This document shows, one piece after another, positions 16,067 through 60,035 of a stretch of DNA of 64,000 nucleotides. The stretch lies in NCBI GenBank assembly GCA_902795435.1, contig CADBLE010000008.1:28028-92027 (forward strand), in the 5' to 3' direction. The translations under genes and the position numbers were made by a program. The notes beneath the pieces are model-generated. The model did no database searches. It had not been told where the DNA came from and saw nothing but the letters and a program-made list of their open reading frames with translations. Each line of letters begins with the position of its first letter. The first letter of the stretch is position 1. This DNA comes from an uncultured Pseudomonadota bacterium (lineage in GTDB: Bacteria; Pseudomonadota; Alphaproteobacteria; Rs-D84).

Positions 16067-17281
16067 TTACCCGTTGTTGCCACTGGTTGTTGTTTGTTCT
16101 GGTGCACTGAAACGCCAACCCTTAAATGTTTTACCCTTAATAGTTTGGGCTTTAACTGGGGTACGAACGTCAGAACCGTATGTCGCGGTTCCCGCATTAT
16201 TTGCAGATACATCTTCTGCATCTGCATTTGACCAATTAATTGTAATTGTGTTCGCTTCACAACTTGCCAAAGGATTACCAACAAACCCGAAAAATGCAGC
16301 ACGAAAACGCAAATCCGACGAATAAGTAAACGCCAGATTATCTGCACATATAACCGCACAATCTTCAGCACAACTAGATGCAGAACCAGGGTTTTGTGTA
16401 TAAACCCAAGGGGTAGATACAGATATTAAGCTTTCTCCACTTGGAGTATAGCTATCAAGCTTACAGTAGCAATATTGAGCACCAGTATTACCGGTTTCGT
16501 CAACTAATGTTTCGTATACTGTTGGATTACTCCAATTGTAACCGTCAAAATCACCATCCATAAATCCTTGTGATGTACTGCAACGTCCATGTCCTGCTAT
16601 TCTACCTTTATCACCATAATCCACAGCCCATGTATTTTTTTCTGTCATTCCCCAAACATTTGCTTGTCGTACTTTTTCACCGTTATTTCTTATAGCCGCA
16701 TTATATATAGTACTGCCAACTTTTTTTACTTCAGTATTACCAATTATATTTATCAAATCAGGTGCACCTGGTTTTAGATGCCATCCATTTTCACATGCCG
16801 TTGGTTCGCATGTATCGGTGCCGTTGCCGTAATAATCATTACCGCTGATTGCGGTTGCGTGGGCGATTGCTGTTATGGAATCACCAACATTATTTATATC
16901 GCATGCACGATAACATTGGGTATTACTGCTTGAACCGTCTGCGGAACTGCCAAAACCAGATGGGCATGTTTCTATACCCTGAGCCAAATTTTCATTATAT
17001 TGAACCGTTTCACCACCCGCACAGAAAGAACCCGCCGGACATGTTGTTATTGTTTCGGAATCTTTCGGTAAATATTTTCCCGCATTTAACAAATAATTTA
17101 TTGTTTCATATTCTGCTGTTGCGTTGACGGTACCTTCATAAACACCGTCCATATTTGTTGATGTTGCCGCGTTATCGTATGTTTTGTTTTGTTGCATTAA
17201 ACCATTTGACGGAAAATTTTCCGCCATTGCCGGTGCAACCGACATTATCAACATAGAACTTAAAAATATTTTATTTTTCAT
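16067..17281 (-). CDS. Secreted Cys-rich surface protein paralog A, with C-terminal Listeria-Bacteroides-repeat (Flg_new)-like domain
   Basis: Signal peptide MKNKIFLSSMLIMSVAPAMA. The C-terminus ITINWSNA..TATYGSDVRTPVKAQTIKGKTFKGWRF fits the Flg_new pattern (Y/T-V-x-F ... yG ... P ... GytFxGW). Paralog of 26997-28232. Confidence 0.75.
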   Translation of the reverse strand: MKNKIFLSSMLIMSVAPAMAENFPSNGLMQQNKTYDNAATSTNMDGVYEGTVNATAEYETINYLLNAGKYLPKDSETITTCPAGSFCAGGETVQYNENLAQGIETCPSGFGSSADGSSSNTQCYRACDINNVGDSITAIAHATAISGNDYYGNGTDTCEPTACENGWHLKPGAPDLINIIGNTEVKKVGSTIYNAAIRNNGEKVRQANVWGMTEKNTWAVDYGDKGRIAGHGRCSTSQGFMDGDFDGYNWSNPTVYETLVDETGNTGAQYCYCKLDSYTPSGESLISVSTPWVYTQNPGSASSCAEDCAVICADNLAFTYSSDLRFRAAFFGFVGNPLASCEANTITINWSNADAEDVSANNAGTATYGSDVRTPVKAQTIKGKTFKGWRFSAPEQTTTSGNNG

Positions 17282-17303
17282 TTTTCTTTCCTTTCTTTTG
17301 TTA

Positions 17304-17349
17304 AATAAAAAAACAGACAAATAACGTCATCAACGTTATTTGTCTGTTT
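17304..17349 (-). promoter_or_regulatory. Terminator-like hairpin in the 5' leader of paralog A
   Basis: Perfect 17-bp stem 17311-17327 / 17333-17349. On the minus strand it is followed by a T-run, then RBS AAAGGAAAG and the ATG. Conserved at 28257-28302. Confidence 0.6.
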
Positions 17350-26996: not shown

Positions 26997-28232
26997 TTAC
27001 CCGTTATTGCCGGTTGTTGTTTGTTCTGGTGCACTGAAACGCCAGCCACGGAATGTTTTACCTTTCTTGGTTGCCGCTTTGACTGGGGTTCTGACGTCGC
27101 TGCCATATGTAGCGGTTCCGGCATTGTTTGCGGATATATCCGCTGCACTTGCATCCGACCAATTAATTGTAATTGTATTCGCTTCACATGATGCCAAACC
27201 ACCAGTTCCGGTTGCAGAACCGACCAACGCAGCACGGAACGCGAGGTTGGTCGGGTCCGAGTTATTCATGCCGCTCACACAGGCTCTAGCGCAGCTGTCC
27301 GCACAATTCGACGCGCTGTTGTAGCTGTTGTAGCTGTTGTAGAACACCCAAGGGGAGAGCACCGCTTGCAAGGTTCCACCATTCGGTGTATAGCCCGTCA
27401 CATTACAATAACAATTTGATGCGCCCTCTTGTCCCGTTTCGTCTGTTAAACTGCTTACAAAATGGTCAGATTCAAATGTATTATTATTGTAAGACCATTT
27501 ATTTGCTACACCACGTGTGCTACAACGGGCCTGACCAATCAACATACCCTTGGATGAACCGTAATCTACCACCCATGTGTTATTATCGCTTATGCCATAA
27601 TAACTTTGTTCTTGATGTACAACAACTTTACTGTCTTCACTGAAAGAACCGTTGTTGTTTATAGATGCACCCGCACCGGTGCCTGTACCAATTGCGGTTG
27701 CTAATTCACTGCTACTTATTCCTGATTTCAGATGCCATCCGTTTTCACAATCTGTTGCGCCACATTGGTTATTATCACCATAATAATAGCCACCCGTTAC
27801 GCCCGCAGAATGTTCTACATCCGCCGTTGTACATGTTCTGTAACAATCGTTTTGTGAATCAGAACCCGCTGCGGATAATGCGTATATACCGTCTGTCGCG
27901 GTGGAACATGAATTTATACCCTGGTCTGCGTTTTCATTATACAATGCATTTGTTAACCCAGGGCACCAAGAACCCGCTGGACATTGTGTTCCGTTTGTTG
28001 CGTCAGAACCAGCCGCCAAATAATTACCAGCGACGATATTATACAAGATATCTGTATATTCTGCGACCGCGTTTACGGTTCCCGAATATACACCGTCCAT
28101 ATTTGTTGATGTTGCCGCATTATCGTATGTTTTGTTTTCCTGCATATATCCGTTTGATGGAAACGTTTCCGCCATTGCAGGTAACACAAACCCCATTGCA
28201 AATGCACTGGTTAAAAATATATTCTTTTTCAT
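26997..28232 (-). CDS. Secreted Cys-rich surface protein paralog B, with C-terminal Flg_new-like domain
   Basis: Signal peptide MKKNIFLTSAFAMGFVLPAMA. The N-terminal block ETFPSNGYMQENKTYDNAATSTNMDGVY and the C-terminal block ASCEANTITINWS...GKTFRGWRFSAPEQTTT are shared with 16067-17281; the core is diverged. Confidence 0.75.
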   Translation of the reverse strand: MKKNIFLTSAFAMGFVLPAMAETFPSNGYMQENKTYDNAATSTNMDGVYSGTVNAVAEYTDILYNIVAGNYLAAGSDATNGTQCPAGSWCPGLTNALYNENADQGINSCSTATDGIYALSAAGSDSQNDCYRTCTTADVEHSAGVTGGYYYGDNNQCGATDCENGWHLKSGISSSELATAIGTGTGAGASINNNGSFSEDSKVVVHQEQSYYGISDNNTWVVDYGSSKGMLIGQARCSTRGVANKWSYNNNTFESDHFVSSLTDETGQEGASNCYCNVTGYTPNGGTLQAVLSPWVFYNSYNSYNSASNCADSCARACVSGMNNSDPTNLAFRAALVGSATGTGGLASCEANTITINWSDASAADISANNAGTATYGSDVRTPVKAATKKGKTFRGWRFSAPEQTTTGNNG

Positions 28233-28256
28233 GTTTTTCCTTCCTTTGTTTGTTAA

Positions 28257-28302
28257 ATAAAAAAAACAGACAAATAACGTCATAAACGTTATTTGTCTGT
28301 TT
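28257..28302 (-). promoter_or_regulatory. Terminator-like hairpin in the 5' leader of paralog B
   Basis: 17-bp stem 28264-28280 / 28286-28302, identical in sequence to the cassette A stem; only the loop differs. Confidence 0.6.
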
Positions 28303-28310
28303 TCATATTC

Positions 28311-28329
28311 GCGTGAATACAATTCACGC
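28311..28329. promoter_or_regulatory. Palindrome GCGTGAAT-ACA-ATTCACGC upstream of paralog B
   Basis: Perfect 8-bp arms; a covarying counterpart of 17358-17376. Confidence 0.5.
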
Positions 28330-28354
28330 AATTTATACACGCAACGAAACTATC

Positions 28355-41272: not shown

Positions 41273-43486
41273 TTACATGTTTATATCTTCGCAAGATTCA
41301 AGTTCTTGACAGAATTGTTTTTTACCACCAGATGCAGCACCCAATGCACCGGCACCAACCGCACCAACCAATCCACCAATGGCGGTTCCCCAACCTGCAC
41401 TGACCATTGTTCCAGCTGACGCACCAGCAGACAAACCACCCGCAGCTGCCTTTAATGCAGATGTAGCCTTGGATTCGCCACCTTCTTCGCAAACCTGTTG
41501 CATGCGACAAACATGACAATTACGCAAATTTGGTTCAAATGATACAGTATGGATATAACTGTAATTTGAAGATTTCTTTTCTTCATCTGGCTTTTCTGGT
41601 TTATATGTCTTCAAGCAAATTTCTTTTGCTTCTTCCAAATCTTTTTTACGTGCCAATTCTGCAATTTTGGAATCTAATTCACGCAAATTACGATTTTCAG
41701 CAGACATTTTCGCCAACAACTTAGCAGTCATAAACACACTGGTTCCCAAAGAATTTTTACCTTTTACCTTCTTGGTATCATCAGCAACACTTTGAGAATC
41801 CGCACATGCAGAAACAGTTTTATCTCTTTCAAATTGTGTAAAGAATTCTTCTACAGCAGCATCAGAATTTGCAACAACCGTCTTACGCAAAGCCATCAAA
41901 CCTTCTTCTGTATCTGGCAAATCTGTCAAAGATTCAACCGTTGCATCTATTGGCAAACAGGCCATATCTGTTCCACACACTTTTGACAATTGGTCACTGA
42001 AATAATTCACACAACCCTGCAACATCTGATAATCCATTTGCAAGATTGCAGATTGAACAATTATATCATATTGTGTTGCACCATTACATGATGGGAACAT
42101 ATCTTGTGGGCAGAGTGCAGCAATTTCGTACGGTTTTTTACCAACACATTCTGGTTTACTGAAATCTTGACCACATTTATCTTGCAAACATTTATCAATA
42201 TCGTTTTCACAGAACTTTGTTCTCAAAAAACCAAGTTTATCATTTATAACCGCTTGGAAACCTGGGATAATGGAATCACATTCTGTAATAATTGGACAGA
42301 TACCCGCCGCAACATTTACATTTGTTAAACATTCAGCATTTGTTGATGTTGCGCAACTATCTTCCAAACAATATTGTGCCTGGGCCAAACAAGTACCACG
42401 TCTGTGTTTATCAGCGTATTTTTCTGCATCAACCAAGATGCTTTTCATTTCCGCTTCCCAATCTTTTTTAACATAATCACGAACAGCCATACATTGATCC
42501 AAAACATTATCACAAGCATTAGAACGACGTTGTAATAATTTTTTATCAAGACAGTTTTCGAAATTAGTTCCACAACCACCCTTATCCGCAACGCACGCAC
42601 GATAAGCCAACAAACATTCACCACGGTTATATTTGTTTGTTATATCCAACATTTCAAGACGCGCTTTTCTAACCGCAGATTCAGCAATACGTTTATTTGA
42701 TTCAGCATTTGCTTTTTGATCTTTCAAATAAGCATCATAATTCTTACAATCTTGGGCAATCATACGTGTGTATAACATTGATTCCATTTCAGATTTAGAA
42801 CCACATGATTTCAATTCAGCAGAACAATATTTTACAGCCATTTTGTATAAATCATCACCCATTGTGACATCTTCACCAACCTCACCTTCATCGTCTTCGT
42901 CTTCTTCAGACCCCAACCATGCCAAGAAACTGGTTCCAGAAACACCCTTATTACCAGATTTTTCACTAAACACCAATGACGCTTTGGCACCTAATTGTTC
43001 ACGTTCTACACCTTCTGTGAATAATTTATCTGCCTCTGCTTGAATATCAAGAACGGCTTTAATTTTGCTTTTTGCAAGATTTATATTATCTGAACAAGCA
43101 CATCTTTCCCCCTGACTTTCGTCTAACAAACAGAATTGGTCCATACAATCACGATACGCATCACGACAATCGCCATTGCTACTCGCTGTCTTTGCCGGAA
43201 TCGATTCGGAAACTGGTTCTGAAACCACACTTGCATTTGCAGATTCTACATCAGTTTTTTCAACAACTGGTTCTTCTTCAACAAAATCTTCTTCCTCAGG
43301 AACTTCTTCTTTTTCAACGGTTCCAGCGACCAATGCTGCTTTAACATCAGCAGTTGTTATCGTCATACGATTTCCTGCTTGAGAATTTCTGTTCATGCCA
43401 ACACGTGCACTTGAATCAACACGTCCCGCACCAAACACAAGCGTTGGAAACACTAATAAAACCGGTAAAATATTTATTATTTTCAT
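41273..43486 (-). CDS. Large secreted cysteine-dense protein, family member P2 (737 aa), Gly-zipper C-terminal segment
   Basis: Signal peptide MKIINILPVLLVFPTLVFG. Motif DCRDAYRDCMDQFCLLDESQGERCAC. C-terminus AAGGLSAGASAGTMVSAGWGTAIGGLVGAVGAGALGAASGG. Confidence 0.8.
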   Translation of the reverse strand: MKIINILPVLLVFPTLVFGAGRVDSSARVGMNRNSQAGNRMTITTADVKAALVAGTVEKEEVPEEEDFVEEEPVVEKTDVESANASVVSEPVSESIPAKTASSNGDCRDAYRDCMDQFCLLDESQGERCACSDNINLAKSKIKAVLDIQAEADKLFTEGVEREQLGAKASLVFSEKSGNKGVSGTSFLAWLGSEEDEDDEGEVGEDVTMGDDLYKMAVKYCSAELKSCGSKSEMESMLYTRMIAQDCKNYDAYLKDQKANAESNKRIAESAVRKARLEMLDITNKYNRGECLLAYRACVADKGGCGTNFENCLDKKLLQRRSNACDNVLDQCMAVRDYVKKDWEAEMKSILVDAEKYADKHRRGTCLAQAQYCLEDSCATSTNAECLTNVNVAAGICPIITECDSIIPGFQAVINDKLGFLRTKFCENDIDKCLQDKCGQDFSKPECVGKKPYEIAALCPQDMFPSCNGATQYDIIVQSAILQMDYQMLQGCVNYFSDQLSKVCGTDMACLPIDATVESLTDLPDTEEGLMALRKTVVANSDAAVEEFFTQFERDKTVSACADSQSVADDTKKVKGKNSLGTSVFMTAKLLAKMSAENRNLRELDSKIAELARKKDLEEAKEICLKTYKPEKPDEEKKSSNYSYIHTVSFEPNLRNCHVCRMQQVCEEGGESKATSALKAAAGGLSAGASAGTMVSAGWGTAIGGLVGAVGAGALGAASGGKKQFCQELESCEDINM

Positions 43487-53692: not shown

Positions 53693-53749
53693 AACCAACA
53701 ACACAATTTTCATAACAAAAAAATTCATAAACAAAAAGACAATAAAAAA

Positions 53750-53775
53750 ACACCGATTAAATATCGGTGTTTTTA
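53750..53775. terminator. Bidirectional terminator between ccrM and P4
   Basis: Stem ACACCGAT (53750-57) / ATCGGTGT (53763-70) with A and T runs on either side. Confidence 0.75.
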
Positions 53776-53791
53776 TTTATATATCTGACGA

Positions 53792-55867
53792 TTACTTGTG
53801 TATGATACCATCCTTTTTGAAATAATCATAGCACATTTGTTCCAAACTGCCACTGTATGTTGCATTTGAAGCACCAGTTGTTGATACTGCTGAATCTGGC
53901 AAATGTAAATTCCACTTTACATAGAAATCTTTCAAAGAATCTATGGTGTGTGATTTACCCAATGAAACAGAATTCAAACCATCACCAACCTTACATGTAA
54001 TGTTACTGCGTTCAATCAAAGCGGTAATACCTGTTGCCAAACCACCAGCGGCCGCACCAGTTACAGCACCGATTGCCAAACCTTTACCGATTTCAGCGCC
54101 CTTGCTCAATTTCTTTGTTGAACCAGATTTTATACCAGATGGAATAACCGGAGCAATTTCATCTAACAATGAATTCATTCTGGCCAATTCATTTTTGATT
54201 TGGTTCACAGTTTTGCACATACCATTATGATTACAGAATGGATTATCTGGACCTTCTACTGCAAATCCAAGCTGTAATGGAACAAATAAACATTGTTCAT
54301 TAAATGTACGTATTTCATCATTAGTAATTCCATTAGCAGAACCACATATTACAGAACCAGACATAACAACACTATCACCTTCTGGGGTTCTGATTTCCAA
54401 TTTTTCGTATGCAGTTTGATTTTTTGCACTTTCAACCATCGCGGTCAATCTGTTGTTTGTTTGATTTGATGTACAAGATGCAATTGCGTCTTTATAAACA
54501 TTAGCCTTGGAATACAAATCAAGTATTGCATTACATTGTTGTTTGTTCAAATTATACCAATTTGTTTCTGGGCCAAATAATTTGTTAGAAGATGCTTCTT
54601 CAACTTCTGCCAAAGATTTACCATCTGTACCTGTTTTCAATTTAACATTTTCATACAAATATGTTTTTAATAAACCTTGGTTAGAAGTAGAAGTTATTTG
54701 CGCAGCCAATTTTCTGCGGTATTCATCATCAGCACAAGGATTCAAATCTTTGTTTGCCAATTCTTCTTCTGCTGCTGCAGCTGCTTTTGCTTTCTTGTCA
54801 TATACTGCGGCACCTGCACCTGCACCAATTGCAGCACCCAACAGAGTACCACCGCCAACACCAACAACAGCAACTGTTCTGGTATCATTTAACAGAGATT
54901 TGAAATCAAACAATTCTTTGTTACATGTAAATGTAGAACCTGTCTTTTCCCAAACTTCTGCAGGATTATTATTACCAACTGCACCGAACAACCAACTGTT
55001 TGTAATCAATTTATCTTTGTTATATGCAGCAACACGAATTAAACATTCTGCCTTTGATGCGTCCCAACGTGCATAATGACCACGATTTCCATCATAGCCA
55101 GCAGTATTTACCATAACACCTTGAGGATTCAATTTAGACAAATTGCCATCACCAGATTTGTTGTATGCACCAACACCATTATTGTATTCTGTATTCACAG
55201 CATTTGTATCAGATACCGCTGCAAATGAAGAACCGTATGTATTTCTGTCAATCAACAAACAAGTATTTTCAGCCTGGTTAGGTGTCAAACCTGTTTTACG
55301 TAAAACGAAATTATAATATTCTGGTTGAACGATAGAACAATTGAAATTCATCCAAACATCAGCATTGGAAGAATAAACATTTTTACAATCAACACGAACT
55401 TCGCGGATACATTTATCAATTTGGGCCTGACATAATCTCATTCCACCCATGATAGAATTACGAACTTCGTCATTAAACATATCGTTTAAACCACCCTGTA
55501 ATGCACCACCATTGATACATTGCAAAACATCATCCATACACATAGTTGTTGTGTATGTGGAATTTTTTACACCACCATCTTCGCATTCAGGTGTTGGTGT
55601 TGGGGTATCAGGTGTTGGAACAACCGGTGTCGGCACAATACTGCCACCAGAAACACTTAAATTTCCAGACAAATCAATATTCTGAACCGCAGGATTTCCG
55701 ACCGTATTCAAAGACACAACCGGCATAGTTGGCATACGTGCAGTGTTTACATTTTGTGGCATCACACTGCGACTTGCACGACCATTATCAGCAGCATTTA
55801 CACCGCTGAAAGCCAGCATAACTGCGAAACTTGTAAGTGTTATTCCAAAATAATTTAATGTTTTCAT
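53792..55867 (-). CDS. Secreted Cys-rich protein P4 with two glycine-zipper hydrophobic segments (691 aa)
   Basis: Signal peptide MKTLNYFGITLTSFAVMLAFSGVNA; Pro/Thr linker PTPVVPTPDTPTPTPEC; segments VGVGGGTLLGAAIGAGAGAAV and GLAIGAVTGAAAGGLATGITALI. Confidence 0.7.
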   Translation of the reverse strand: MKTLNYFGITLTSFAVMLAFSGVNAADNGRASRSVMPQNVNTARMPTMPVVSLNTVGNPAVQNIDLSGNLSVSGGSIVPTPVVPTPDTPTPTPECEDGGVKNSTYTTTMCMDDVLQCINGGALQGGLNDMFNDEVRNSIMGGMRLCQAQIDKCIREVRVDCKNVYSSNADVWMNFNCSIVQPEYYNFVLRKTGLTPNQAENTCLLIDRNTYGSSFAAVSDTNAVNTEYNNGVGAYNKSGDGNLSKLNPQGVMVNTAGYDGNRGHYARWDASKAECLIRVAAYNKDKLITNSWLFGAVGNNNPAEVWEKTGSTFTCNKELFDFKSLLNDTRTVAVVGVGGGTLLGAAIGAGAGAAVYDKKAKAAAAAEEELANKDLNPCADDEYRRKLAAQITSTSNQGLLKTYLYENVKLKTGTDGKSLAEVEEASSNKLFGPETNWYNLNKQQCNAILDLYSKANVYKDAIASCTSNQTNNRLTAMVESAKNQTAYEKLEIRTPEGDSVVMSGSVICGSANGITNDEIRTFNEQCLFVPLQLGFAVEGPDNPFCNHNGMCKTVNQIKNELARMNSLLDEIAPVIPSGIKSGSTKKLSKGAEIGKGLAIGAVTGAAAGGLATGITALIERSNITCKVGDGLNSVSLGKSHTIDSLKDFYVKWNLHLPDSAVSTTGASNATYSGSLEQMCYDYFKKDGIIHK

Positions 55868-56004
55868 ACTATTTTCCCCTAAATTCCTATGAAATTATTA
55901 TATCACAGAACGCATATAAAAAAAAGTTTTTTTTAGAATAATATTACAACGATTTTATTTGTATAAAATATTGACAAAGCAAATATATTGTCTATAATTT
56001 ATAT

Positions 56005-56964
56005 ATGAACAAAATAAAAGAATTCTTGCAAACAAATCTGATTGTATTGAAATGGGGTTTATACTATTTCATTGGACTGTGGTTTATTTTGGAATTTTTG
56101 TTTGGTTTTAATTTGTTATCTGCACAACATTGGCACAAATTCTTTCATTCCAGTTTTCATGGTTTTGCCGGATTTACATTTCAAATAATTATGTATGCCG
56201 CATTACCAATATTTATTGCAAGTGTTATAACAATATACAGAACGAAAGAACCAATAATAAAAATAACTATTTTTGATAAAATCAAAGAATACTTAAAAGG
56301 TCTGAAACCGACAACCGCTGAAGAATCAAAAGAAGAAACAACACCGGAAAACGAATCGGAACCAGAATATATCTATCCGAACGATTTACCACGTGAATTA
56401 CGCATTCCGTTTAAACGTGCCAAAGAAAGAATTGGTATCCGTGGCCCAGTATCCGCATATAATCAAATTCATCAAACAAAAAACGAAACACTGGAACAAC
56501 CAACACCAGAATCAACGGACGCGTTCCCTATTCCATCAGATTTTGATATATCTGATACATTTGACGAAAATGATACACAATCATTAAATGAAATACCTGT
56601 ATTCCAAGATTTAGATTTTGATACACCAATCATGACTGAAAAAAAATTAGAAAACGAAACAACAAAATATTTTGATAATAAAAAAATAGAATATGAAACA
56701 AATAAAAATTTTGTTATCACAGATAAATATGTAATCTATGAACATAATGATGGCGATTTTTGGATAATGGATAATGAGGCATGGTTTGCCGCTGGAAAAC
56801 AAATAGATTCCCCTGTTCCAGAAATTTTACAAATTGCAAAAATGAACAGTTTAATACCAATCATATATTTACAATCTGAAAACATTATGGATATAGAAAC
56901 AACAATATCTAATTTTGAAAACAATGGCATTCGTGTAATAAAAAGTCTGGCTGAATTAGATTAA
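56005..56964 (+). CDS. Hypothetical membrane protein (N-terminal TM helices, acidic linker, C-terminal globular domain)
   Basis: ORF track; hydrophobic N-terminal third; own terminator; no family recognised. Confidence 0.5.
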   Translation: MNKIKEFLQTNLIVLKWGLYYFIGLWFILEFLFGFNLLSAQHWHKFFHSSFHGFAGFTFQIIMYAALPIFIASVITIYRTKEPIIKITIFDKIKEYLKGLKPTTAEESKEETTPENESEPEYIYPNDLPRELRIPFKRAKERIGIRGPVSAYNQIHQTKNETLEQPTPESTDAFPIPSDFDISDTFDENDTQSLNEIPVFQDLDFDTPIMTEKKLENETTKYFDNKKIEYETNKNFVITDKYVIYEHNDGDFWIMDNEAWFAAGKQIDSPVPEILQIAKMNSLIPIIYLQSENIMDIETTISNFENNGIRVIKSLAELD

Positions 56965-57065: not shown

Positions 57066-59834
57066 TTATTGACCTGTCTTATCAACCAAGCTTCCTCTGT
57101 TTACTTTCTTCATAGGAATCTTGTCTGTTGCTGTAACTTTTGCATCTTTGTCTTGTTGCCAACTCCAGCAACAACCCGCAACACGTCTTGAACAACGATA
57201 TTCTTTACGTGTTACAGTACATGTGCTTGTAGCGGAATCATACGCAACTGTTGCACCGTATGTAACACCACGACGGCCACGTCTTGTGCAACCTGTATAG
57301 AAATCAGGTGTTTCTTTTCTTGCGTTACACATAGCTTCATTATATCTATGTTGTTTATCCGCTTCGAATTGAACGATTTCATCTATACGTGCATCAAGTT
57401 TCTTTTGTACGTCATCCCATTTGTCTTCTTTCAACTTATTGATTTGACCTGCATAAAGTTCCCATAATTGGTCAACCAATTGTTGTGCAATAACAACCTT
57501 GTAAGCATCTAACAAGTTAGGGAATCTTGCACCATTACCAGAATCAGAAGGAGATGTTCCATCTTTCTTGGAAATGCCTTGGAAATCTTTACCAACCAAA
57601 CAAGCGTTCACAGTTCTGTCTGCTTGAATTTGTTTGATTTTCAGATTGAAAGCATTCTGCATAGCAACTTCCAATTTTTCCAAATCAGATTCTTTATATC
57701 CCGCTGTCGCATCAACATTTGTCAAAGGATCATGAGAGAAGATTTTTTCTGGAACCGGTGTTGCATTTGCATTTGCATTTGCTGCATCTTGTGCAACTGG
57801 GGCAACTGGTGTTGCAGAAAAGTCCTTATATCCAACAACTGACAAATCTAAACGACCAACGACACGTGGTGTAATCTTACCGGCAATCAAATCTTCTTTA
57901 GCAAATGAATATGCATCTGCTGAACAAGTTGTTGTGCCTTCTTTACACAATTGAACTGTCAAGATATCGTTTACGAACAAGTTATCTGACAAAGTTGCGT
58001 TTTCACAAGTTGTTGTTCCACCACAAACTTCTGTCATTGCTTTATCCGCAGCTTCTTCACAGATTTCGCCATAAGAATTATTGATATTCAAAGCCAAACC
58101 TTGCGCAACTTCTGCAACATAATCTTGAACTGTGTCTTTGTTATATTTTGTTTGGCAAGCGATAAGTTTGTCAAATGGGCAAAGAGCAACTATACGATCT
58201 GTAGATAAACCAATACAGCCAGCATAATCTTCACCGCAACGATCTTCGCTTTGCAAACATTCTTTAATTTGTTCTGTACATCTATCAACACGGTCTGCAG
58301 CCAATTTAGCCTGAACGTATGCAACAACGTCATTTTCAGAACCTACATCACCGCAACGTTTGATTTCTAATGAACAGTAGTTTTTAATAGAATCTGGATT
58401 TGACAAACATGAATCGTAGTTGTCTGTTCCTTCATCCATACCTGCAGATTTACATGATTTCTTTACACAGTTAATGATTGTTGTTAAACAATTCATACGT
58501 GAATTAGAAGCCATGTTATATTCTGTATTATAAACTGTCAAAGCAATGTCTTTCATAAATTCACCAAGAACTTTACCGCCAGCCAATGTAACACCACCGT
58601 TAGCGTTTTGACATTGACGAACAACAGATTCACAACGCATTGCTTTATTCTGCAAGATATCGTATGTTGCAGAAGAAATTGTTACAGTTGTAGCACCTGT
58701 TTTGATTTGGGTTGTAGCAACCTTACCATTTTTTGTGCCTTTTGTTTTTCCATATAAAGCACTCAAAATAGAAGTGTCAGCAACGCAACCGCCGAAATCT
58801 GTTCCGCATTCACCAGTTGTTTGCATACATTGTTTAAACGCGATTACGCAAGAACCCAAATCTTCGTATTTGTTTTTGTTCTTTTCTTCGTCCAACAATG
58901 CTTCACGAACTGCTCTTTGTGCTGTTTGCAATTTTTGAGCAGATGCTGTTCTTTGTTGTTTCAAAGCATTTTCGTAACCCGTACAATCTGAACGGATTTT
59001 TTGAGCGTATGTTTGTTGCAACATAGCAGCTGCTGTTTTACATTGACTTGGGATTTGTTGTGTACAAATCTTTGCGGCAGATTTATGTAATTCATCACCT
59101 TTTTTGTTTGCCAAATCATCTTCGATTTTGAAATCGTCTTTTTCTTCGTCTCCACCGAATATTTCATCATCATCAAACATAGATGAATTATTCCAAGCAG
59201 ACAAATCTAATTCTCTCTTCTTTGATGTATTAGCAGCAGCCTGTTGCTTTTTTTCTTCATCGGTCAAGAATTCTTTTTCCAAAGATTTTGCACGAGCATC
59301 AATTTGAGAAGCCAATTCACCCATTTGGACTTTTTCAACACCCTGTGTTGCCAAATTCATACTCTTTTCGTCCAACTTCATAATTTCATCAAGAATCTTG
59401 TCTAATTCTGTAATTCTGTCATTACATTGACAACGACCACCAGAAGCATTATCCATCATACAGAAAGCGTCCATACATCCATAGTATGCATTTTGACATT
59501 CTGTACTTATAGTTGTGTTTTCAACAGCAGTTGAAACCTTGGTTCCCATGTTGATTGCTTTCTTAGTAGCAGCAGCACGCGCACCATTTGGTTTACCAGC
59601 AGATGGCTTTGTTGCAGCAGCATTTGAACCACCAGTTGTTGAACCTGTGGATTTGCCAGGATTAGTAACCTTGCCACCACCCATTTTTGCGGCACGGGCG
59701 CCATTTGGTTTTGGTGCGGCACTGGCATTTGAACCAGATGTTCCACCACCACGTCCACTACGAGGTGCAGCGAAAGTGCTGGTTTCCACGGCACACATAG
59801 CCATGATTATCGGTAAAATTAAAAGTTTTTTCAT
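57066..59834 (-). CDS. Large secreted cysteine-dense protein, family member P5 (922 aa)
   Basis: Start trimmed to MKKLLILPIIMAMCAVETSTFA (ATG at 59832-59834). Gly/Ala/Lys-rich N-region with KPNGARAA twice. Motif ECQNAYYGCMDAFCMMDNASGGRCQC. Colinear with P1. Confidence 0.8.
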   Translation of the reverse strand: MKKLLILPIIMAMCAVETSTFAAPRSGRGGGTSGSNASAAPKPNGARAAKMGGGKVTNPGKSTGSTTGGSNAAATKPSAGKPNGARAAATKKAINMGTKVSTAVENTTISTECQNAYYGCMDAFCMMDNASGGRCQCNDRITELDKILDEIMKLDEKSMNLATQGVEKVQMGELASQIDARAKSLEKEFLTDEEKKQQAAANTSKKRELDLSAWNNSSMFDDDEIFGGDEEKDDFKIEDDLANKKGDELHKSAAKICTQQIPSQCKTAAAMLQQTYAQKIRSDCTGYENALKQQRTASAQKLQTAQRAVREALLDEEKNKNKYEDLGSCVIAFKQCMQTTGECGTDFGGCVADTSILSALYGKTKGTKNGKVATTQIKTGATTVTISSATYDILQNKAMRCESVVRQCQNANGGVTLAGGKVLGEFMKDIALTVYNTEYNMASNSRMNCLTTIINCVKKSCKSAGMDEGTDNYDSCLSNPDSIKNYCSLEIKRCGDVGSENDVVAYVQAKLAADRVDRCTEQIKECLQSEDRCGEDYAGCIGLSTDRIVALCPFDKLIACQTKYNKDTVQDYVAEVAQGLALNINNSYGEICEEAADKAMTEVCGGTTTCENATLSDNLFVNDILTVQLCKEGTTTCSADAYSFAKEDLIAGKITPRVVGRLDLSVVGYKDFSATPVAPVAQDAANANANATPVPEKIFSHDPLTNVDATAGYKESDLEKLEVAMQNAFNLKIKQIQADRTVNACLVGKDFQGISKKDGTSPSDSGNGARFPNLLDAYKVVIAQQLVDQLWELYAGQINKLKEDKWDDVQKKLDARIDEIVQFEADKQHRYNEAMCNARKETPDFYTGCTRRGRRGVTYGATVAYDSATSTCTVTRKEYRCSRRVAGCCWSWQQDKDAKVTATDKIPMKKVNRGSLVDKTGQ

Positions 59835-59859
59835 AAAGTACTCCTTAACCTTTACGGTT

Positions 59860-59888
59860 ATTTTATCATAATCACCAAATATTGACAA
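59860..59888 (-). promoter_or_regulatory. Candidate sigma-70 promoter of P5
   Basis: On the minus strand: TTGTCA (59883-88), 17-nt spacer, TAAAAT (59860-65), about 25 nt before the ATG. Confidence 0.45.
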
Positions 59889-60035
59889 GCACATTTTTAT
59901 ACAAAAAAAGAAAAAATTTCTACATTTTGAAAAATTTTTATAAAAAAACACATCTTATATTTGACAAACCATTTTTATCGTGCTAGTTTTTGTCGGCTTG
60001 CCCTAAAAAAAGTGGGTCAAAATAAAGGTTAAAAA

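Follow-up and report, generated by a model that had tools for sequence, protein, structure and literature searches.

The stretch of DNA analysed in this work (hereafter the window) comprises 64,000 nucleotides of contig CADBLE010000008.1 (positions 28,028 to 92,027; assembly GCA_902795435.1) from an uncultured alphaproteobacterium of the order Rs-D84, and the gene under study, P4, occupies positions 53792..55867 of the window on the minus strand. In our best explanation, to which we give about an even chance, P4 is a Sec-exported envelope protein anchored by a glycine-zipper hairpin. It would be delivered to the envelope and probably disulfide-bonded there, while its two zipper segments would form the arms of one antiparallel helical hairpin serving as a membrane anchor, most likely in the outer membrane, as in SlyB/Pcp, YiaD, OsmB and the Rickettsia 17-kDa antigen. 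The conserved N- and C-domains would meet at the base of the hairpin, probably stapled by a Cys315-Cys625 disulfide, and a variable Cys-bearing domain of 236 amino acids (aa) would be displayed at its tip. Alongside the Cys-rich exported proteins of the CMDxFC family encoded nearby, and possibly the membrane protein memb319, P4 would probably belong to a structure of the cell envelope or surface that is specific to the lineage.

Architecture of the P4 Gene and Its Product

The P4 coding sequence, taken with its ATG start from the list of open reading frames (ORFs), encodes 691 aa plus a stop and is monocistronic, with a Shine-Dalgarno-like AGGGGA upstream of the ATG. A terminator-like bidirectional hairpin (53746..53774) is located 3' of the stop, between the convergent ccrM and P4 genes, and a divergent intergenic region (55868..56004) separates P4 from the memb319 gene. 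The length, the signal peptide, the PT-rich linker, the scattered Cys residues and the two Gly/Ala stretches that an earlier note on this DNA had listed were all recovered on direct reading.

All parts of the protein are given here with their coordinates on the minus strand. A Sec-type signal peptide, MKTLNYFGITLTSFAVMLAFSGVNA/AD, occupies the N-terminus (residues 1-25, 55793..55867) and was recognized by its sequence, hydropathy and the conserved consensus xGAxAA; it ends in ...AFSGVNA/ADNG, with cleavage predicted at VNA/AD. A test for a lipoprotein signal peptide revealed no lipobox Cys, the first Cys of the protein being residue 95. The following ~70 residues (26-94, 55586..55792) form a low-complexity linker, which carries an R44-M45-P46-x-x-P49 motif and a proline/threonine (PT)-rich spacer (PTPVVPTPDTPTPTPEC) and ends in PTPVVPTPDTPTPTPE; in the alignment of 58 homologues R30, R44 and M45 were invariant, and P46 and P49 near-invariant. 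The conserved N-domain (residues 95-330, 54878..55585) possesses nine invariant Cys and many invariant polar residues, e.g., in RGHYARWD and NQAENTC. It is followed by glycine zipper 1 (residues 331-356, 54800..54877), by a fast-evolving middle domain (residues 357-592, 54092..54799) with six invariant, widely spaced Cys and C508 present in 78% of homologues, by glycine zipper 2 (residues 593-618, 54014..54091) and by the C-domain (residues 619-691, 53792..54013 including the stop). Altogether 19 Cys were counted (residues 95, 110, 117, 146, 153, 161, 177, 203, 275, 315, 378, 445, 465, 508, 526, 545, 551, 625 and 679). A C-terminal tail of ~55 aa with three Cys, present in ~95% of homologues, is absent from the window's allele (53792-53900) and from its two closest relatives, P0001 and P0002; the tail of P0003 is different and longer. 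Cys177 is an extra residue of the N-domain gained by the small clade of the window's allele (FNCSIV against the consensus FNSR).

Two Glycine Zippers as the Arms of One Split Hairpin

Residues G340, G344, G348 and G352 of zipper 1 and G600, G604, G608, T612 and A616 of zipper 2 were either invariant or at least 90% conserved among the 58 homologues, with i+4 phasing, and no charged residue was present across 22-26 residues of each zipper. Since these small residues are invariant or nearly so and spaced by four, the zippers of P4 represent a glycine-zipper signature rather than a compositional accident. Mean identities across 57 homologues were 74% in the N-domain, 67-70% in the zippers, 31% in the middle domain and 81.5% in the C-domain (residues 619-660). 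In an AlphaFold2 model built from the 58-sequence alignment, the predicted local distance difference test (pLDDT) score was ~75-90 for the N-, middle and C-domains (~80-85 in the N-domain, except for the loop 210-262) and below 50 for the linker. Placement of the Gly-rich segments in a soluble beta-rich core, named in the earlier note as an outcome that would speak against membrane anchoring, was not what the model and the alignment revealed: the segments are helical, charge-free and conserved in phase.

The relationship of the two zippers became evident from short homologues. The first one, P0121, was traced from a weak match in a genome of a sister family (G027; L014:2029-3276). It comprises 415 aa, in which the signal peptide and an S/T/R-rich linker precede a reduced N-domain, the zipper pair and the C-domain; its zipper 1 (ILGIVGAGGGAFVGG) is joined by a 13-aa loop (SKENTTPDISSEQ) to zipper 2 (VVGITAGVGVGGALGSYAGAYLG), which leads into the C-domain (SVYCTVGRGIEMV...). 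The hhalign comparison of the P4 profile with this protein (Prob 96.6%, E 4.8e-10) ran through zipper 1, and the remaining parts were colinear with P4 in tblastn pieces. The second one, P0242 of locus L031, comprises 512 aa, shares 43% identity with P4 in the N-domain and 56% in the C-domain, and has a 14-aa loop (HNTETADGGNKTGE). Both lack the middle domain, and their zippers stand 12-14 aa apart; only in these short forms do the helices adjoin, the distance in P4 being 236 residues. When 1.84 billion representatives were scanned in full by HMMER, with the short form as the query, 48 relatives were obtained at E <= 0.001, and among the 47 remote ones (the query being left out) the inter-zipper distance varied from ~8 to ~320 aa; a Pfam scan of 43 remote relatives recognized no domain in the inserts.

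Because the short homologues keep the order of N-domain, zipper 1, short loop, zipper 2 and C-domain, the two zippers of P4 are, as judged from these alignments, the two arms of one hairpin. From the two short forms and the ~8-320-aa range of inter-zipper distances it follows that the ancestral or minimal unit is apparently composed of the N-domain, the two-helix glycine-zipper hairpin and the C-domain, with the hairpin tip acting as a putative insertion hot spot. In the family represented in the window, a domain of 236 aa appears to be inserted at this tip.

Comparison with Known Glycine-Zipper Proteins

Nothing above threshold was found for either P4 or memb319 in Pfam, NCBIfam and PHROG scans. 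A PDB sequence-profile search with P4 gave no matches at E <= 1, and the best E-value in a Foldseek search of the P4 model against PDB was 2.8, which was taken as no match. At least 729 full-length relatives or clusters were present in a collection of 5.8 billion proteins, all of them unnamed or annotated as 'hypothetical protein [Alphaproteobacteria bacterium]' and originating from metagenome-assembled genomes. Neither the P4 family with its three domain folds nor that of the neighbouring memb319 has been described before.

Outer-membrane glycine zipper 2TM lipoproteins, as well as the combination of a glycine zipper and an OmpA domain in YiaD, have been described (bioRxiv 10.64898/2025.12.22.696046). 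P4 shares with the former group (SlyB/Pcp, YfgH, OsmB and the Rickettsia 17-kDa antigen; PF05433, PF13488 and PF13441) two charge-free helices with GxxxG phasing, their arrangement in a hairpin and the export to the envelope. Unlike proteins of the SlyB/Pcp type, it has its hairpin split by a 236-aa domain, bracketed by a conserved Cys pair and flanked by large Cys-rich domains of no known fold. The matches of P4 to Gly-zipper_YMGG, Rick_17kDa_Anti and Gly-zipper_Omp were sub-threshold. When zippers 1 and 2 were joined artificially, the scores reached 20.4 bits for PF13441, 14.6 for PF05433 (cutoff 24.2) and 12.8 for PF13488 (cutoff 25), all still sub-threshold; only the module of a relative from genome G032 exceeded the cutoff of Gly-zipper_Omp PF13488 (27 vs 25 bits). 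The match to the NCBIfam model of YiaD, NF053611, was weak (E 0.068). YiaD combines a glycine zipper with an OmpA-like domain, as does a P4 relative from genome G029 (see below), but its OmpA domain follows the hairpin whereas that of the G029 protein lies between the zippers; in P4 itself no OmpA-like domain (PF00691) was found by the Pfam scan. P4 may therefore work like the glycine zipper 2TM lipoproteins, yet we do not file it as a member of this group, because it scores below the thresholds of the hidden Markov models (HMMs), has no lipobox and has its hairpin split. The anchoring principle as such is already known; what is new is the lack of a lipid anchor, the bracketing of the hairpin by Cys and the insertion of whole domains at its tip. 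The glycine zipper 2TM hairpin would then not be confined to small lipoproteins and possibly represents a general modular anchor.

A Putative Disulfide Staple at the Base of the Hairpin

Cys315 (FTC), located 17 residues before zipper 1, is invariant, and Cys625 (ITCKV), seven residues past zipper 2, reaches a conservation of at least 90%, even in relatives of ~25% identity; the G029 and G032 proteins likewise have both Cys. In the AlphaFold2 model, short strands were predicted at residues 312-314 and 623-627. The minimal form of the protein bears seven mature Cys on the N-terminal side of the hairpin and exactly one on the C-terminal side, and odd Cys counts on both sides were observed in 137 of the 148 homologues in which both motifs were locatable, a proportion inflated by shared ancestry, as the homologues are not phylogenetically independent. 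With odd counts on both sides, all Cys can be paired only if one disulfide bridges the sides. The Cys315-Cys625 pair probably forms such a staple at the hairpin base.

Location of the Insert and Alternative Topologies

A P4 relative of 521 aa, encoded in the genome G029 of another sister family (f6; L030, ORF from base 1379), aligned to P4 residues 300-395 (Prob 96%, E 4.9e-9); this region takes in zipper 1, the AEVWE...FTC.KELF motif and, with the invariant Cys378, the first helix of the insert. Between its zippers, an OmpA domain (PF00691) was recognized by Pfam with 47 bits against the cutoff of 27.2 bits. OmpA-like domains bind peptidoglycan in the periplasm. Just upstream of this gene lies that of a further Cys-rich protein, which has a zipper pair and a ~100-aa insert. 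The loops of the short P4 forms are acidic or neutral. On a crude Hessa sum, the zippers of P4 gave +3.0 and +3.3 kcal/mol against -3.3 for the first transmembrane (TM) helix of FtsH from the same genome; the second FtsH helix gave +2.4, so that the zippers are only weakly separated from marginal real TM helices by this measure. In addition, a DsbA-like protein that is membrane-anchored and bears a CPYC motif is encoded in the genome of the window (G000:C12:15251-16120). Arguments for an extracytoplasmic location of the P4 insert are the OmpA domain occupying the corresponding position, the invariant Cys of the insert, the non-basic loops, the positive Hessa sums and the DsbA-like oxidoreductase.

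The same OmpA insert would also be reconciled with periplasmic N- and C-domains if P4 were wholly periplasmic and peripheral, its zippers mediating homo- or hetero-oligomerisation (e.g., with the zipper pair of the CMDxFC protein P2) or dipping into one leaflet. The marginal hydrophobicity of the zippers fits this possibility, and at least ten other Cys-rich exported ORFs of the genome carry similar zipper pairs with which P4 might associate. Charge-free segments of 22-26 residues kept over deep divergence are, however, typical of bilayer-embedded helices, and the analogues SlyB and YfgH are described as transmembrane (bioRxiv 10.64898/2025.12.22.696046). We regard a peripheral P4 as unlikely.

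A two-pass inner-membrane protein, in which zipper 1 serves as a stop-transfer segment and zipper 2 is re-inserted, leaving the N- and C-domains in the periplasm and the middle domain in the cytoplasm, seems to us rather improbable as well. Lys-rich flanks on the middle-domain side of both zippers speak for it, as do the maximum Kyte-Doolittle hydropathy of zipper 1 (1.72 over 19 residues) and the example of the second FtsH helix, which demonstrates that marginal helices do insert. The middle domain would in that case expose to the cytoplasm six invariant Cys devoid of any CxxC-type metal motif, in the fastest-evolving part of the protein (31% identity); moreover, the positive Hessa sums of the zippers (+3.0 to +3.5), the acidic or neutral character of the loops in the short forms and the peptidoglycan-binding OmpA domain at the same position in the G029 relative are at odds with such a topology.

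Very improbable is the pore-forming or toxin role suggested in the earlier note, with the zippers oligomerising to form a channel in the membrane of a target or of the producing cell itself and P4 possibly delivered together with the CMDxFC proteins: glycine zippers do occur in channel-forming proteins (Kim et al., 2005, as cited in bioRxiv 10.64898/2025.12.22.696046), dependence of the lineage on partner cells has been proposed (PMC12306168) and the insert is variable, but no toxin, secretion-system or immunity gene and no PADLOC-type or phage context was associated with P4, its PHROG matches were insignificant, conservation is highest in the parts adjoining the zippers (flanks 74-82% identical) of a near-universal, single-copy, syntenic gene, and in the short homologues the zipper pair is reduced to a plain hairpin, as in the anchoring 2TM domains. 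A toxin or passenger domain of the VacA type was recognized in P4 neither by Pfam, NCBIfam, PHROG and PDB-sequence searches nor by Foldseek, with no match below E 2.8. Anchoring is preferred to pore formation because the zippers form one hairpin, which is the architecture of the anchoring glycine zipper 2TM domains.

Several observations weigh against the hairpin-anchored envelope protein that we favour. The AlphaFold2 pLDDT of the zippers was below 45. P4 scores below every Pfam glycine-zipper gathering threshold (PF05433, PF13488, PF13441 and PF13436; 10.2 bits for PF13441, cutoff 28.9) and has no lipobox, whereas all characterised outer-membrane glycine-zipper proteins have one. The number of Cys in the middle domain is odd in many homologues, and neither DsbB nor VKOR was found in P4's own genome (90% complete). 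The mean net charge was +2.0 in the flank before zipper 2 and +0.6 in that after zipper 1, compared with -0.5 and -0.2 on the outer sides, so by the positive-inside rule an inner-membrane topology with a cytoplasmic middle domain would be favoured. Finally, the evidence on orientation is in conflict, as the fast evolution of the insert would fit a tip exposed at the cell surface, while the OmpA domain of the G029 relative implies a tip that would lie in the periplasm. Knowledge of the topology of P4 would reveal which side of their envelope these bacteria turn towards their partners.

Distribution of P4 and Its Genome Setting

P4 was detected in 170 of the 171 sampled genomes of its family, belonging to 11 genera and all of ~0.7-1.1 Mb, whereas no match at E <= 1e-5 was obtained in the 29 genomes of five sister families. 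The genome of the window (0.95 Mb, ~35% G+C, 90% complete, PFOR present) contains one copy, and no paralogue of any P4 sub-domain was found there by HMM search. The gene is surrounded by housekeeping genes (ccrM, nrdR, slt, rpoA and L17). P4 is thus a near-universal, single-copy, syntenic core gene of one family of reduced-genome gut Alphaproteobacteria. The organism is fermentative and has been reported to lack respiratory chains; it is in this setting that the DsbA-like protein occurs with no DsbB or VKOR detected.

The profile of this tiny, PFOR-bearing genome agrees with what has been published on Candidatus Enterousia and the order Rs-D84, for which dependence on partner cells has been proposed (PMC12306168). 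These bacteria are abundant in the gut of livestock and humans, have not been cultured and possess genomes of less than 1 Mb, in which few dispensable genes are retained. A near-universal, family-specific, exported protein of 691 aa with no known relatives in so tiny a genome can thus be considered a strong candidate for a key component of the envelope, of interest both for envelope biology and for the question of how reduced-genome gut symbionts face their partners.

Neighbouring Genes and the CMDxFC Family

The gene memb319 (56005..56964, plus strand), which the earlier note had marked as a divergent membrane-protein neighbour of P4, encodes a protein with two TM helices near its N-terminus, from which a disordered, acidic linker leads to a C-terminal alpha/beta domain of ~100 aa. 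Residues 218-318 had pLDDT above 90 in an AlphaFold2 model; the best E-value of this model against PDB in Foldseek was 0.36, taken as no match. A short loop between the TM helices is conserved and rich in His and Trp (W43...H48...H52). A perfect sigma-70 consensus, TTGACA-16-TATAAT (55971-55998, plus strand), faces the gene. The adjacency itself is conserved: homologues of memb319 adjoin those of P4 at loci L011 (45% identity), L013 (28%) and L031 (28%, beside the short form), and they are kept beside P4 homologues that are themselves 50% and 42% identical to P4.

P5, a Cys-rich exported protein of the CMDxFC family (57066..59951, minus strand), is a near neighbour of P4, as the earlier note had pointed out, and the linkage recurs well beyond the window. 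By comparison of coordinates, ~19 of the genomes sampled from the same genus, and one from a sister genus, have a P5-type CMDxFC gene at a distance of 2-5 kb from P4. In G027, the gene of a 400-aa CMDxFC protein (CSNYFSECMDNIC) precedes the short P4 on the same strand, with 61 nt between its end and the short P4, and at L031 the gene order is rpoA, L17, the memb319 homologue, a 923-aa CMDSFC protein, a BrnT/BrnA pair and the short P4. The BrnT/BrnA genes (L031:6090-6651), lying between the CMDxFC gene and P4, constitute a toxin-antitoxin pair. The CMDxFC family was present in 31 of 31 genomes of P4's family and in 13 of 29 elsewhere in the order. The co-occurrence of the two gene families, proposed in the earlier note as a check, was uninformative within the family since both are universal there; the adjacency, recurring across deep divergence in three lineages, is a real signal of functional linkage.

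The CMDxFC proteins (P1, P2, P3 and P5) resemble P4 in lineage, signal peptide, S/T/R-rich linker, many invariant Cys and conserved neighbourhood; they differ in having no detectable homology with it and in reaching other families of the order, P4 being confined to one. The echo of the CMDxFC motif that had been noticed in P4, TTMCMDDVLQC, is indeed present and conserved, but no homology to the family stood behind it in the profile-profile comparison. P4 as a divergent member of the CMDxFC family was rejected, as only signal peptides aligned in hhalign (Prob 2.7%) and no HMM matches were obtained; BLASTP of P4 homologues against the CMDxFC paralogues of the window gave no cross-matches either. 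P2 (41273-43495, minus strand) does end in a glycine-zipper pair (41324..41458, minus strand), as had been claimed; the pair has no insert and is followed by FCQELESC, and its similarity to P4 is at the level of pattern only, with no HMM-detectable homology to the P4 flanks. Of the proposal that P4 is a membrane-inserting or anchoring partner of the CMDxFC family, the partnership and the anchoring agree with the neighbourhood link and with the helical, charge-free zippers; nothing observed points to the pore formation or toxin activity that the note also considered.

As a more speculative extension, which we consider rather unlikely in this full form, P4, the CMDxFC proteins and a dozen other zipper-bearing Cys-rich proteins would jointly build an undescribed disulfide-cross-linked envelope or surface layer, in which stapled hairpins serve as modular anchors and their tips display no domain, an OmpA-like one or a variable Cys domain. 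Such a layer, if it exists, would be an interface for attachment to partner cells or exchange with them. The chlamydial cysteine-rich outer-membrane complex (OmcA, OmcB and MOMP) comprises several Cys-rich envelope proteins in a host-dependent bacterium with a reduced genome and has no glycine-zipper hairpins; its likeness to P4 is conceptual only.

Other Cys-Rich Exported Proteins of the Genome

By a crude signal-peptide heuristic, ~45 ORFs of the window's genome (G000) with signal peptides were counted that contain at least 12 Cys. At least ten of them have a single glycine-zipper segment or a pair of them, in some cases with ~240-aa inserts like the one in P4 (e.g., C11:22232-25693, C9:46896-48698, C7:37842-39491, C3:9752-11611, C1:49514-53113 and C8:826-4950). 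None of these proteins was detectably homologous to the domains flanking the P4 zippers, and they are regarded as analogous in pattern only, because no paralogue of a P4 sub-domain was revealed by HMM.

A pattern R-[LM]-P-[ST]-[IM]-[PA] at ~20 residues past the cleavage site was present in the six-frame ORF set only in P4 (ARMPTMP, in the region 55700-55790 of the window) and in the 1146-aa two-zipper Cys-rich protein of C11:22232-25693 (SRLPSIA); the short P4 of L031 has RLPSIP. It may be a sorting or docking motif, the two occurrences against ~0.9 expected by a rough estimate not being significant. A regular-expression search revealed no enrichment of an 'AR' motif after signal peptides. Exported paralogues of ~400 aa with 14 Cys (MKQKIFLTSALAMGF...FPSNGYMQE...NMDGVY) are spread over many contigs, occurring in the window at 16067-17320 and 26997-28340 and at ~15 further loci of the genome.

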